Notes: generated from the sequence alone by a model not told the origin. A DNA stretch of 64,000 nucleotides from Candidatus Multivorans sp. (GCA_965224025.1 OZ245033.1:3936001-4000000); one strand, 5' to 3'. Positions 19,846-31,616 are shown, counted from the stretch's first letter. Made by a program: numbers and translations.

Positions 19846-22377
19846 TCAAGCTGCCCCGCGGAGCATTGGCCGACGGTCATGACTGCGTGTGACCGCAGGA
19901 GGCTGGCGGCACCTTGAGGATCCAGAATCGCCCCGGCCTCTGCGCGACGGCGCGTAGCGCGTGTAAACGGCCATGCCGGGGCCGATGGCGGCCTGCGCGA
20001 GGTCGACCGGGGCCACGTTGCCGGTCTGGAGAAGACGGAGGGCCCGGGGAAGTTCGGAGCGAAGCGCGGTCAGGAACTCGCGGCGGGTGGCGAGCGGAGC
20101 GTCGGCGGGGCGGCGTCGGCAGACGAGGACGATGCTGGAGGCGAGAGCGTTGGTTCCTTTGGCGAGGATTCGCCCTGCTCCCTCGGTGCGCATCGGCCAA
20201 GTGCCGGTGACCGAGAAGCCCGACCCGATTAGGGCTCCAAGAAACGTCTCCCAACCAGTACTCGTTGTTCCGCTAGCGCCCCTTCTCTCGGATTGCTTGA
20301 AGGCGTAGTAGACCGTGATTGGGAAGCCCGTATGAGCCTGCTCGGCTAGCCGTTGCATTGCCCGCGTCATCCCAGCCAGGAAGAAGGTCTCCGCAGCGGC
20401 CTTACCTCCATGACGGTATGGCGATGCCACCAGTTCCTCGCTCTTCGGCACCGCTAGCGTTGAGAAGAGATCTGGAAAAACGAACGGTACGGAACGCCGC
20501 AGCCAGACGTAGAAATAGTCCGACAGGTCGGCGTAGCCGATGTTGTCGTAGTAAGGAGGATCGGTCGAAACGACTCTGCTCGTGGCTGAGGCTTGGCTCG
20601 CTGCGTCCATCTGCCTGCTCCACGCAGCCCGCTGCGCCGGGAGTGCTTCGATCGCCATTGCCCCCTTGGCGATGGCGGCATCGAAACTGCCCCCGAGTCC
20701 GGCGAACGAGTTCGCCTCGGCGAAGTCCCACATCATCGGGATCGCCTGTCGAGCGAAGGTCTCCCGGAAGGCACCTCGATCACTCATCCAGGAGGTAATC
20801 GAAGAGTTGACGTTCGAGGTCTTCGACACCGCTAGCGCCAGATACACCCCTACCGCCTCGGCGTAGGCGGTCGCACCGCTGCCGCCGTCGCGTAGTGGGC
20901 GGCCGTCGTCGGGCACACCGGCTGCAACAGCGTCTCGGCGCACCCGGGCCATGGCCTCGCCGACCAGGTCGGAGAACGTCGCTAGGGCCACGAGCTGACG
21001 GGGCGTGAAGAGGTCGCCGAAGGAACGGAGACCGTAGTTGGGAGTCTTGAAGTCGCGTGGGTTCTCTGGAAGCGGCATGTCTGGCTTCCAGGGCACCGAG
21101 AGGTTCTCGGCTACGACCTCCTGCTGCCTTGTCGGCGTGAGATACACCCGAGTCCGGTCACCCTCGGCCACGATTGCCATCAGGCGCGCGCTCATGGCCC
21201 CCAGGCACCCCTGAGTACGAATGTGGTCGTAAGAGACGGGGACTCCAGGAACACCCGACATGAGACACCGAAAAGCCTGGCGTTTTCCGGCCGCCGTCCC
21301 CGCCTTCGTCGCCGCCAGATCCGCCGGCACCCCTGCCTTCACCTCGAACCGATAGTCCCGTCCCTCAATCACCGGCTCAACGTAGGCCTCCTTGCCCTTC
21401 TTCGTCGACAACATGAACGTCGACGCCAGCGGTACGTCGACATCGGCAAACGCCGGGTTCGGACTCTTCACCGTCCGTGCCCACAGCCAGGCGATCACGG
21501 TCAGCTTCCGGCCCTTGTACGGCGCCAGATCGGGTCGCGCCCGCACCATGGCCGGTGTGATCTCGACATCCGGATAGAAATGGCCGATCCGCTTCTGCGC
21601 CTCCTCCCGCATCCACCGACCGTAGTAGCGCACATCCTCAGCGAGTCCCTGCGCGCCACGCCACGACTTCGCCGCGATCTCTTGCCCACCCCGTGATTCC
21701 GGATTCACGGGCGACCGGCCGGCGAACTTCGGGGGAATCTCGATCATCGCCTTGTTGATGAGCACCGCCACTGGGTTCAGGTCGCTGGCGTGCGCTTCGA
21801 GGCCCAGCCGCTGCGCCTCCAGCGGCAACGCGCCGCCGCCGGCGAACGGATCGTGGAAGGCCGGCAGCCTGTGCCTGTCGAACAACTCCGCCGCCCGCGG
21901 ATGATCGGCGTTCTCCGCGCACACCCGGCGCCAGCTCTGCCGGATCTCGCTTCGCGCCTGCTCCAGGAGATCCCTATTCGTCGTGTTCTCCCACTTCACG
22001 AGCTCCCGCAGGATCCCGAACAGCCTCTCACGCTCCTGCTCGGCGAGGATCTCTCCAAGCAGCAGGCGCTCGTACGAGCCACCCGCCCCCTCCGCCCCCG
22101 GTTCGGTCTTCGTCCCTGCCGCCTGCCGCCTCCGAAGTTCACGCCGTGCCGCCCGCATCTTCACCGGGTCCGACATCAGTACATCGACGTACTCCGATGG
22201 ATCGTCCACCATCTGCGCGAAGATCACCGCCCGAGCCGCCGCCAGCGGTCGTCGCGCCCACCACAGATGAAGCGTCGACGGATGCCCGTGCCGGATCGAC
22301 TTCTCGCGCGCCGAAGCCGCGTTGATCGCGTCTAGCGGCAGCGCCACCTCGATCAGCTTTCTGCGGCAGAGGCTCAT
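19846..22377 (-). pseudogene. DUF1156 amino-DNA methyltransferase, allele A, C-terminally truncated (silent or incomplete cassette)
   Basis: [30 protein letters not shown] (motif I) and TDPPYYDNI (motif IV). Homology stops after AVYTRYA at 19951; the last 190 aa present in allele B are missing. Confidence 0.88.
19951..20891 (-). repeat. 941-bp inverted repeat, left copy (pairs with 29734-30674)
   Basis: Ends read manually (paired coordinates sum to 50625). Several ORF-track translations are identical on opposite strands, e.g. 20319-20798 vs 29827-30306, 20582-20866 vs 29759-30043 and 19973-20308 vs 30317-30652. Confidence 0.95.
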
Positions 22378-22465
22378 GGATGAGGGTCTTGCGGTCAGAC
22401 TGCGATACAGCAGTTCGGTTCGCTAGCTCCGAAGTTCACAAGCGGTAGGCGTGAAGTTCGCCCGC

Positions 22466-29733: not shown

Positions 29734-30674
29734 GCGACGGCGGCAGCGGTGCGACCGCCTACGCCGAGGCGGTAGGGGTGTATCTGGCGCTAGCGGTGTC
29801 GAAGACCTCGAACGTCAACTCTTCGATTACCTCCTGGATGAGTGATCGAGGTGCCTTCCGGGAGACCTTCGCTCGACAGGCGATCCCGATGATGTGGGAC
29901 TTCGCCGAGGCGAACTCGTTCGCCGGACTCGGGGGCAGTTTCGATGCCGCCATCGCCAAGGGGGCAATGGCGATCGAAGCACTCCCGGCGCAGCGGGCTG
30001 CGTGGAGCAGGCAGATGGACGCAGCGAGCCAAGCCTCAGCCACGAGCAGAGTCGTTTCGACCGATCCTCCTTACTACGACAACATCGGCTACGCCGACCT
30101 GTCGGACTATTTCTACGTCTGGCTGCGGCGTTCCGTACCGTTCGTTTTTCCAGATCTCTTCTCAACGCTAGCGGTGCCGAAGAGCGAGGAACTGGTGGCA
30201 TCGCCATACCGTCATGGAGGTAAGGCCGCTGCGGAGACCTTCTTCCTGGCTGGGATGACGCGGGCAATGCAACGGCTAGCCGAGCAGGCTCATACGGGCT
30301 TCCCAATCACGGTCTACTACGCCTTCAAGCAATCCGAGAGAAGGGGCGCTAGCGGAACAACGAGTACTGGTTGGGAGACGTTTCTTGGAGCCCTAATCGG
30401 GTCGGGCTTCTCGGTCACCGGCACTTGGCCGATGCGCACCGAGGGAGCAGGGCGAATCCTCGCCAAAGGAACCAACGCTCTCGCCTCCAGCATCGTCCTC
30501 GTCTGCCGACGCCGCCCCGCCGACGCTCCGCTCGCCACCCGCCGCGAGTTCCTGACCGCGCTTCGCTCCGAACTTCCCCGGGCCCTCCGTCTTCTCCAGA
30601 CCGGCAACGTGGCCCCGGTCGACCTCGCGCAGGCCGCCATCGGCCCCGGCATGGCCGTTTACACGCGCTACGCG
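29734..30674 (+). repeat. 941-bp inverted repeat, right copy (pairs with 19951-20891)
   Basis: Starts GCGACGGCGGCAGC and ends ACACGCGCTACGCG; the sequence diverges from allele A immediately outside both ends. Confidence 0.95.
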
Positions 30675-31616
30675 AAGGTGCTCAACGCATCCGGCGAGTC
30701 GATGCCGGTGCGGGAGGCCCTTGCCCTGATCAACCAGGTCCTCGACGAGGTGCTGGCCGAGCAGGAGGGCGAGTTCGACGCGGACAGCCGCTGGGCGCTC
30801 GCGTGGTTCGAGCAGCACGGTTTCGCCGAGGGCGACTACGGTGTCGCCGAGACGCTGTCGAAGGCCAAGAACACGAGCGTCGCCGGAATGGTGGAGGCCG
30901 GAATTCTCACGTCGAAGGGAGGCAAAGTGCGCCTGTTGCCGCCGAAGGAGCTACCAGGTGATTGGGATCCGGCCACTGACAAACGGCTCACGGCGTGGGA
31001 GGCGGTGCACCACCTGATCCGTGTCCTTGAGACGGGCGGCGAACAAGGTGCAGCGAAGCTTGCCCGCAGCCTCGGCGGAATGGCCGAAACGGCCCGGGAA
31101 CTCTGCTACCGCTTGTACACGGTGAGCGAACGGAAGAAGCGCGCCGCCGATGCGCTGTCCTACAACAGCCTCGTGCAGAGCTGGCCCGAGATCAACCGAC
31201 TCGCGAGAACCGAGGCCGATCCCAGACAGGCGGGCCTCCTCGACTAGGCCTGGAGCGTAGGATACGGGGCGTGCCCATCAGGCTCTACAGCAATGAGGAG
31301 CTGGATTCGCTCCGGGCGATGCGCAAGACGGTATCCAATCCTGGGGCTCGCTGGACAGAGAAGCCGACCAGCGCCCCGGCTCACAGGCAGCGGTCGTTCA
31401 AGGCAACGGCTGAAGACGAAGCGACGGCCCGATTCGACATCTACCAGCGCCAGAGTCTGAAGGACGCGGCTGCCTTCTCCTGCGGGATCGCGCTCGTCTC
31501 TGCCGACGGTTCCCGACTGACCTTGGCGCGCTACAACGGACCCCTCTCTGCCAACGTACGTGACACAGCGGGCATCCCGTTGAATAGTGGAGGGCACGCG
31601 TTGGCAAGGAGGATCA

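Follow-up and report, generated by a model that had tools for sequence, protein, structure and literature searches.

The window analysed here is a stretch of 64,000 nucleotides (nt) from Candidatus Multivorans sp. (GCA_965224025.1, OZ245033.1:3936001-4000000), which belongs to a genome of 5.14 Mb in three contigs (G000). Judging by the domain and profile matches of its genes, it contains a Hma defence system, also called Type-1 BREX-related (DUF499-centred). The system comprises the SNF2 helicase HmaA, the DUF499 ATPase HmaC and the DUF1156 methylase HmaB, the last of these encoded in two divergently oriented copies, allele A and allele B, which share an inverted repeat and enclose the genes for two tyrosine recombinases, Rec1 and Rec2. 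The features of the locus are collected in Table 1, and the comparisons described below suggest that the segment between the repeats may be invertible, exchanging the methylase head that is joined to a single C-terminal tail.

The inverted repeat and the two hmaB alleles

A repeat search of the window identified inverted arms of 1087 nt (19951-21037 and 29588-30674) with 96% identity. In a base-by-base comparison all 40 of the 40 mismatches were located at or beyond 20892, leaving two stretches of 941 nt that are exact reverse complements of each other, and the homology ends sharply at the outer edges of the arms, 19951 and 30674. The 941-bp stretch is present at these two places only in the genome. 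Two more diverged inverted stretches (804 nt at 84% and 278 nt at 86% identity) cover the 5' thirds of both hmaB genes, and both copies contain a DUF1156 domain (Pfam E-values 4.5e-27 and 1.1e-27) and the DPPY motif. Allele A extends over 2427 nt (809 codons, from 22377 to 19951) as far as the repeat edge, followed by 34 unrelated codons and a stop at 19846, and is referred to below as the dead-end copy. From the right arm, the reading frame of allele B continues into a further 573 nt (190 codons and a stop, the tail), which is the best-conserved part of hmaB and is present once. Joining allele A to this tail in silico yields one open frame of 999 amino acids (aa) and a stop. An earlier note, made from the sequence of the window, had described an identical 941-bp inverted repeat, an allele A broken off at its outer edge, an inversion that would join A in frame to the tail, and two tyrosine recombinases inside the segment. 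All of this was borne out, by alignment of the copies at 100%, by the end of homology after 809 codons, by the joined frame, and by two ORFs (open reading frames) with Phage_integrase matches, respectively. Its account of allele B was correct in that B runs into the last 190 codons, but B is not an intact gene, being split by an ISL3-family insertion sequence (IS).

This ISL3 element is 1498 bp long and ends in 24-nt terminal inverted repeats; the 8 bp of its target duplication, ATGAGAGA, are found at 27921-27928 and again at 29427-29434. When the element and one copy of the duplication are removed in silico, allele B is open through the shared part. The chromosome contains 12 full-length, near-identical copies (the window copy included) in addition to fragments, indicating that the element is active and that the hit on allele B is recent. 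In the present orientation the genome has no complete hmaB (A lacking the tail, B split by the IS), and since allele B is broken, an inversion would restore the only complete methylase as well as change the allele. An IS expansion is in progress in this genome.

Sequencing data (four runs from two samples) were examined as Logan contigs over 18000-26600. In the contigs of two runs from one sample, the depth of the repeat is about twice that of its unique flanks (41.6-49 versus 17.9-19.5 in X1, about 100 versus 42-52 in X2), which argues against a collapse or a chimera and contradicts the possibility, raised in the earlier note itself, that the repeat is such an artefact. A collapse or two-strain chimera in a metagenome-derived assembly could draw on the genome contamination score of 5.66%, and on the many related hmaB genes contained in the runs, with a depth above 1000 in conserved N-terminal bins. 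It is nonetheless extremely improbable, given that in two runs the unitigs of the repeat are about twice as deep as either unique flank, and that the same architecture and boundary recur in 13 other genomes of the genus and in 18 further loci, many of them on single multi-megabase contigs. Two apparent signs of rearrangement in the contigs were discarded. A joint between opposite strands (22366 to 26600) is merely the 86%-identical start of the other hmaB copy, and a loose end at 19952 in X3, reading into tail-like sequence, is no evidence of a flipped form, as the runs hold many related hmaB genes.

Table 1. Coordinates of the features of the hmaB locus, counted from the first nucleotide of the window.
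Feature	Position	Strand	Evidence and remarks
Left arm of exact 941-bp repeat	19951-20891		weaker homology (~73%) on to 21037
Right arm of exact 941-bp repeat	29734-30674		weaker homology back to 29588
hmaB allele A (dead-end copy)	19846-22377	-	motif I and DPPY; Pfam DUF1156; PADLOC HmaB 1254 bits, profile 80-782 of 967
hmaB allele B, 5' part up to the IS	26673-27928	+	Pfam DUF1156; 84-86% nt identity to A
hmaB allele B, 3' part (rest of variable insert, shared catalytic region, tail)	29427-31247	+	PADLOC HmaB 853 bits, profile 363-958 of 967
Single shared tail, 190 codons and stop	30675-31247	+	56-84% identical across relatives
Candidate crossover site, dead-end boundary	19945-19990	-	putative; last ~40 nt of shared coding block (...GMAVYTRYA) and ~6 nt of flank
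Candidate crossover site, junction of shared block and tail	30635-30680	+	putative
Rec1 tyrosine recombinase, fused in frame to MntA-like nucleotidyltransferase	23676-25127	-	Pfam Phage_integrase 8.2e-22 and NTP_transf_2 7.2e-14, one ORF
Rec2 tyrosine recombinase	24997-26283	-	Pfam Phage_integrase 2.2e-16; motifs present; 36-37% identical to Rec1
ISL3-family insertion sequence splitting allele B	27929-29426	+	transposase 28177-29403, Pfam DDE_Tnp_ISL3 7.6e-63
335-aa ORF directly upstream of allele A, same strand	22466-23473	-	no family match
HepT (HEPN) toxin, type VII toxin-antitoxin pair	23323-23730	-	NCBIfam HepT_toxin 61.2 bits, cut-off 60
vapB-like ribbon-helix-helix gene (weak call)	25984-26235	+	RHH_1 20.5 bits, exactly at cut-off
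VapC PIN toxin gene, directly upstream of allele B	26236-26676	+	NCBIfam VapC family 80.2 bits
IS3-family element between hmaB stop and DUF1828 gene	31271-33100 (transposase 31811-33100)	+	Pfam rve; NCBIfam transpos_IS3 177 bits
DUF1828 gene	33349-34128	+	Pfam; PADLOC PDC-M24B
HmaC: HEPN_Swt1 and DUF499 ATPase	34204-37530	-	Pfam 2.7e-31 and 2.8e-27; PADLOC HmaC 1147 bits
HmaA: SNF2 helicase and C-terminal NOV_C nuclease-type domain	37602-41177	-	Pfam SNF2-rel_dom, Helicase_C, NOV_C; PADLOC 1634.3 bits, residues 1-1190

Conservation of the two-copy module

A search of 42 genomes of the genus, using the 606-aa C-terminal ORF of allele B as query (E <= 1e-60), found hmaB in 16, with two matches in 14 of these and single remnants in the other two. 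The locus comparison that the earlier note had proposed thus places the module in 14 of the 16 Hma-bearing species of the genus, its interior occurring in both orientations. In gene maps drawn for 14 genomes, Rec2-Rec1 is located between the two hmaB copies in 11 and beside the pair in three (G002, G031 and G027). Ten of the mapped genomes have one tail and one dead end, three have two tails (G033, G009 and G019), and G010 has none.

The three genomes with recombinases outside the pair (G002, G031 and G027; loci L029, L032 and L037) follow a variant design, in which the second copy lacks the first ~258 codons (starting at about codon 259) and stands head to head with the full gene, and in which the two genes share another inverted repeat, N-proximal in position (309 nt at 92% in G031). 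This variant would need two inversions to swap the middle part only, like the PglX locus of Lacticaseibacillus rhamnosus. In the short-read assemblies G029 (L038, L046, L047) and G019 (L043-L045), the module is split into contigs that meet at short exact repeats in hmaB, including 17-nt overlaps and 99 nt common to two contigs in G029. At such breaks assemblers cannot choose a linkage, which is compatible with mixed orientations and no proof of them.

A Rec1 profile scan of 185,579 species genomes yielded 80 loci, and in 21 of these hmaB is found beside Rec2-Rec1. Three are duplicate genomes of the genus, and the 18 others are all metagenome-assembled genomes (MAGs), labelled as Acidobacteriota orders, Gemmatimonadetes/Longimicrobiales, and Gamma- and Alphaproteobacteria. 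The locus L069 has a mirror design, with two convergent hmaB copies and a 1.27-kb tail segment between them. No divergent truncated hmaB pair was found outside the genus in the 21 other genomes with a match from a class-wide draw of 401 genomes, and a scan of metagenome contigs with Rec1 gave 19 loci, the best of which is 73% identical (on a 1.4-kb contig), none being close enough to compare orientation. Beyond the genus, the module thus came to light only by way of the recombinase profile.

Orientation changes and selection

Flanking sequences on the ETF side and the HmaC side are colinear between genomes, and in comparison with G000 the interior (24134-26909) has the opposite direction in G025 and G030 and the same direction in G063 and G011. 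Two states were defined according to whether the tail is on the copy at the Rec2/PIN side (R2: G000, G063, G011) or on the copy at the Rec1 side (R1: G025, G030, G022). On an HmaC tree calculated with IQ-TREE, and in agreement with FastTree, at least three orientation changes are required among these six genomes: G000 and G025 are sisters (support 100) in opposite states, and G063 is nested among R1 genomes (99). When G010, G033 and G003 are added, whose flanks are less comparable, the nine genomes scored still give three changes. Similar pairs occur outside the genus, for example L052 and L091, where the interior is 91% identical and the tail flank lies at opposite ends, and likewise L059 and L066.

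No stop was found in ~800 codons in any of the genus hmaB copies tested (0 stops in 19 of 19), nor in allele B without its IS. The ratio of nonsynonymous to synonymous substitution rates (dN/dS) is 0.17, at a dS of 0.71, between two dead ends (G063 versus G030), 0.22 between the dead-end allele A of G000 and its tail-linked G025 counterpart, and 0.23 for a control pair of complete genes (G002 versus G054). By these ratios, purifying selection acts on the dead-end copies just as it does on complete genes. Among the loci from outside the genus, 11 of 14 dead ends and 11 of 15 copies with a tail are intact; L062, L064 and L091 share with G000 a broken tail-linked copy beside an undamaged dead end. 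This sequence-based pattern suggests that a spare allele can rescue the defence system after an IS hit of the kind that has split allele B.

A static pair of paralogues would account for some of these observations. The dead-end copy would then be a working tail-less methylase, a decoy or a regulator, with occasional conversion between the copies and with flips as rare historical accidents. Purifying selection on the dead ends would be explained just as well by a function of the truncated protein; the dead end could be expressed, since a start, catalytic motifs and upstream genes come with each copy; and no population-level heterogeneity was seen in the contigs, which end at the repeat edges. 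Such a static pair is nevertheless distinctly unlikely, in view of at least three flips among six genomes and two more lineages with opposite states, and of the finding that one and the same variable-region allele can be a dead end here and joined to the tail in another genome. The tail, moreover, is the best-conserved part of the gene and is present once, and the convergent 'flipping tail' arrangement of L069 makes sense only with a shared tail.

The tyrosine recombinases Rec1 and Rec2

Both recombinases are Xer-like and score below every NCBIfam cut-off. Their starts were assigned from where homologues begin to align, giving a likely start for Rec1 at the ATG at 24995, and a true start for Rec2 probably near 25995. 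The Rec2 stop lies 1 nt before the likely Rec1 start, and the catalytic R, HxxR, H and Y motifs are present in Rec1. Orthologues of Rec1 (61-75% identity) are found in 14 of the 42 genomes of the genus, each of which contains exactly two matches (Rec1 and Rec2), at the hmaB locus. Rec1 is free of stops and has all four catalytic motifs in 14 of 14, and Rec2 is free of stops in 14 of 14, with the strict tyrosine-motif pattern in 10 of 14.

More distant Rec2-Rec1 relatives (53-64% identity) are present in L070-L129 (except L091), without hmaB and with up to five diverged copies per genome in MAGs labelled Alphaproteobacteria; copies from one genome have only a unit of ~2.4-2.6 kb in common. These unlinked units look like an undescribed two-recombinase mobile or integrative unit. 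A more general role of Rec2-Rec1 pairs, as invertases of flanking gene pairs, was considered and failed (flanking inverted repeats in 0 of 38 loci, paralogues in one of 41, in direct orientation). In a Rec1 tree, calculated without the truncated L091 sequence, all 31 sequences linked to hmaB fall into a single clade (support 0.89), which is nested among unlinked sequences and includes none of them. A single origin of the module is therefore most likely, through the capture of a two-recombinase unit that was followed by spread.

Rec1 of the window is fused to an MntA-like nucleotidyltransferase (the antitoxin of HepT) and followed by hepT, as it is in L026, L027, L030, L038 and L039. This single-ORF fusion aligns end to end in six of the 14 genomes of the genus, the other eight having Rec1 alone. 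Such a recombinase-antitoxin fusion is unusual, and could tie the level of the recombinase to the toxin-antitoxin pair or stabilise the module.

The boundary between head and tail

The dead-end copy ends after the same codon (...GMAVYTRY followed by A, G, E or V) in 11 genomes of the genus and 12 further loci. Within each genome, the last 50 nt before this boundary are at least 90% identical between the two copies (11 of 11 in the genus, 12 of 12 further loci), and identity remains at least 80% through 200 nt in 10 of 11 and seven of 12, respectively, falling to ~55-80% where the copies have diverged. The exact block at the boundary ranges from 14 nt (G033) to 941 nt (G000), with 30 nt in G003, 38 nt in G063, 59 nt in G002 and 77 nt in G030, and is 28 nt in L050 and 30 nt in L052. 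Synonymous sites near the boundary differ between genomes and agree within a genome, indicating concerted evolution and not merely protein constraint.

The small extent of identity at the fixed boundary in other genomes, only ~30-200 nt, points to a site at the boundary itself. A recombination site would accordingly be placed there, probably with a single conserved arm, situated in the coding block, and with conversion tracts that extend inwards, and the 941-bp identity in G000 would be a by-product and not an essential substrate. The switch of specificity suggested in the earlier note is modified in this respect: an inversion exchanging the head on a shared tail is supported by module conservation, flips and selection, but the 941-bp identity is not a universal substrate. 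Comparison of 24 dead-end junctions shows conservation of the non-coding flank at four positions only, +3 to +6, which read G, T, T/C, G there and G, G, T, G in the tail. Dyad symmetry at the boundary was not clear enough for a core site to be named. One genome, G010, has undergone a deletion (L027 6629-6632) that removes the hmaB tail together with the last ~190 HmaC codons and has one end 3-4 nt from the conserved boundary, as if through an aberrant event at the recombination site.

The same data bear on whether the recombinases are needed at all. If the inversions were due to RecA-type homologous recombination only, Rec1 and Rec2 would be passengers of a mobile unit, and the arrangement would be tolerated and not programmed. 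The 941-bp perfect inverted repeat is an ample homologous substrate, within-genome homogenisation needs homology-driven conversion anyway, and relatives of Rec2-Rec1 mostly occur without hmaB, in several copies per genome (59 of the 80 loci). We regard this as unlikely, since in many genomes the two copies share just 14-77 nt of exact sequence at the boundary and ~55-80% identity elsewhere, which are poor substrates for RecA, and yet the module and both orientations persist. Furthermore, homogenisation centres on the final 50-200 nt next to a single fixed point, the dead-end flank keeps four conserved non-coding positions, and both recombinases are intact and strictly linked to the module.

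The variable insert and predicted structure of HmaB

Between alleles A and B, amino-acid identity is 89% in residues 1-336, drops to 52% in 337-491, and is 100% in all that follows from 492. A structural model was obtained for a complete relative (the tail-linked copy of G025), based on a 119-sequence alignment (pLDDT 93.4, pTM 0.93). In this model, motif I and core strands 1-2 are at ~172-197 and the DPPY strand is at 602-610, separated by a large alpha+beta insert that holds the divergent stretch; the boundary falls just past the last core helices (791-806), and residues 811-1000 form helices and short hairpins. The most variable blocks are ~326-450 and ~551-600, whether 20 or 119 homologues are compared. 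A comparative study (PMC12839542) gives the name target recognition domain (TRD) to the insert that separates core strand 2 from the DPPY strand, and, going by that literature and by the model, the differences between A and B appear to be concentrated in the insert taken as TRD. A tree of the variable stretch shows alleles mixed across genomes and positions, the dead-end allele A of G000, for example, grouping with the tail-linked G025 copy (100/99).

A candidate inversion switch

The locus is probably a site-directed inversion switch, run by Rec2 and Rec1, which exchanges the whole HmaB head on the single tail. In the proposed mechanism, Rec2-Rec1 is flanked by two divergent hmaB copies, each providing its own start, a DUF1156 N-terminal domain, a methylase core and a variable insert, and the single 190-codon tail is predicted to encode C-terminal helix-turn-helix-like domains. 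Recombination at or just inside the fixed boundary after codon 809 (immediately following ...GMAVYTRYA) would flip the ~8.8 kb segment, and would thereby exchange which 809-codon head is joined to the tail. The Rec2/Rec1 pair would catalyse or initiate this exchange at an asymmetric site, with its conserved arm in the coding block, and gene conversion around the site would keep the adjacent sequence identical, over 941 bp here and ~30-200 bp elsewhere. In G000, one inversion would restore a complete 999-aa methylase from allele A. We infer also that the process would depend on the recombinases, use this exact site, switch within populations, and change the motif that is methylated or restricted. 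An integrative element that brings in a replacement head was discarded as an explanation, as it would leave direct repeats and not inverted ones.

In a different reading of the dead-end copy, it is made constantly as a tail-less methylase that protects a reserve motif, and the tail couples one head to restriction by HmaA/HmaC. Constant production is conceivable because the dead-end copy keeps its own start, upstream genes, S-adenosylmethionine (SAM)-binding and DPPY motifs, recognition insert and full purifying selection. If this were true, an inversion would change the restricted motif while both motifs were already protected, leaving no window of self-restriction. We think this arrangement rather improbable, and return to the exchange of heads by a site-directed inversion.

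Several points weigh against that switch. Logan contigs stop at both repeat edges, so that linkage across the 941 bp is invisible and co-existing orientations are not visible at the read level. With two insertion sequences and no intact full-length hmaB, the locus in G000 may be in decay and not in use as a switch. Since a separate 5' end comes with each copy, the dead-end copy may be expressed all the time, which does not suit a simple on/off cassette. Site-specific exchange alone does not explain the 150-200 nt that are homogenised, and gene conversion must be added. As regards the recombinases, 59 of the 80 Rec1-profile loci carry the Rec2-Rec1 pair alone, as a unit of ~2.4-2.6 kb and often in several diverged copies per genome; flanking inverted repeats were found around the unlinked pair in none of the 38 loci tested (four had inverted repeats only downstream), and inverted left-right paralogues in none of 41 loci tested, the single match being direct. 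The ancestors of Rec1 and Rec2 thus look like parts of a mobile or integrative unit, their role at hmaB being proposed from linkage, and the single Rec1 clade means that the many loci are not independent origins. In the one experimental study of Hma, overexpression of HmaB was without effect on T4 infectivity (PMC11232893). Reading of DNA by the variable insert is suggested by a comparative paper and by the position of the insert in the model; no solved structure was retrieved by Foldseek at E <= 0.001, and none by a profile search of PDB sequences.

Relation to known invertible systems

In the pneumococcal SpnD39III/ivr type I hsdS loci, specificity is switched by inversion between repeats in coding sequence, with a tyrosine recombinase in the locus. 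The hmaB locus resembles them in having repeats inside coding sequence and a tyrosine recombinase nearby, but in hsdS loci it is half-TRDs of a distinct specificity subunit that are shuffled, with a constant methylase, whereas in the hmaB locus the methylase carries its own putative recognition insert and the whole head would be exchanged. The R64 shufflon involves the Rci recombinase and several invertible segments, joining a constant N-terminus to variable C-termini. Its recombination is of the inversion-only type; likewise, inversion at hmaB would take place at sites inside coding sequence with one conserved arm, joining a constant part to alternatives; by contrast, it involves one segment, a constant C-terminus and two recombinases, as opposed to several segments and one recombinase. 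The description 'shufflon-like' in the earlier note is therefore apt for the way in which the locus would work, but the locus is not a member of the R64-type shufflon. The sfx sites on which Rci acts are asymmetric, and asymmetric sfx sites are named in the abstract of PMC11852207; Tables 1-2 of PMC9881135 include the PsrA invertase and 'Restriction endonuclease subunit S'.

Programmed inversions have been published for BREX type 1 PglX (e.g. in L. rhamnosus), Class 1 DISARM DrmMI, and Cj0031-like Type IIG enzymes (Milman et al. 2023, PMC9881135). As at hmaB, the PglX loci contain a partial inverted methylase copy beside a tyrosine recombinase; inversion there swaps the variable specificity part while the C-terminal part is constant, as it would at hmaB, and in one locus of that study the N-terminal and middle parts are targeted, the C-terminus being encoded separately and left untouched (PMC9881135). 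The hmaB locus differs in its target, the DUF1156 protein HmaB, and in the unit swapped, which would be an entire head of 809 codons together with its start and the genes upstream of it. One inversion would suffice here whereas L. rhamnosus favours two, and two paired recombinases are present in place of one (PMC9881135). DrmMI and Cj0031-like enzymes are similarly large defence methylases, whose variants arise through inversions that involve the full gene and partial copies in the opposite direction. They belong to another methylase family with other partner genes, and their inversions were confirmed by long reads (PMC9881135), whereas the hmaB arrangement is known from contigs and genome comparison.

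In comparison with described Hma systems, HmaA and HmaC give very high PADLOC scores over their full length, both HmaB copies also match strongly (Table 1), and the HEPN-fused DUF499 protein and the helicase-nuclease fusion are common variants (PMC11232893, PMC12839542). The described systems differ in having one hmaB, in an operon with hmaA and hmaC (PMC11232893, PMC12839542). The available portions of these two Hma papers make no mention of inverted hmaB copies or of recombinase-driven or phase variation, and DUF1156 is absent from the main text of PMC9881135, its supplements possibly listing it. The earlier note had known of no phase variation for such a system: none was found for Hma/DUF1156 in these sources or among the papers listed in a wider literature search, but the underlying logic is already published for PglX and DrmMI (PMC9881135). 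Hma, which PMC12839542 renames the Type-1 BREX-related system, is reported there, from one survey, to occur in 2446 prokaryotic taxa. Of Hma systems, 19.1% have phage integrases nearby, which have been read as a sign of mobility, and anti-phage activity is shown only for a Halomonas HmaA (PMC11232893).

The logic of inversion is thus not new for defence methylases other than type I, and only the Hma target appears to be new; the unusual traits of the locus are its constant 3' tail, heads with their own 5' ends, and the recombinase pair. A natural two-allele switch would be a direct handle on the mechanism of Hma, and on whether HmaB sets its specificity. The two orientations could reveal whether the variable insert reads DNA, and whether the tail couples the methylase to restriction. 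Inversion-driven variation of methylases would also be extended beyond type I, BREX-1 and DISARM, and the locus, with its pair of tyrosine recombinases, provides a candidate site within coding sequence whose limits are well defined. The finding is firm and clearly bounded, and should help in the analysis of a defence system that is poorly understood, although its principle is already known.

Neighbouring genes

Between the two hmaB copies, the minus strand carries, in order, Rec2, the Rec1-nucleotidyltransferase fusion, HepT, the 335-aa ORF and allele A, and the plus strand carries the VapB-like gene, VapC and allele B. None of the locus genes matches the HsdS, HsdM or HsdR families, and a promoter and terminator scan gave nothing above shuffled sequences. 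The 335-aa ORF has no Pfam, NCBIfam or PADLOC match; its Atlas features are nearest to DUF3553-type clusters (score 0.95, taken as a lead only), and a homologue with 57.5% identity lies beside the second tail in G009 (L042 9872-10702). In G030, G063 and G029, the DUF1828 gene follows directly after the hmaB tail, within ~70 nt. A 917-aa ORF adjoining hmaA (41206-43959, plus strand), which likewise matches no Pfam, PADLOC or NCBIfam family, is kept beside an hmaA remnant in G027 (76% and 67% identity, in two segments).

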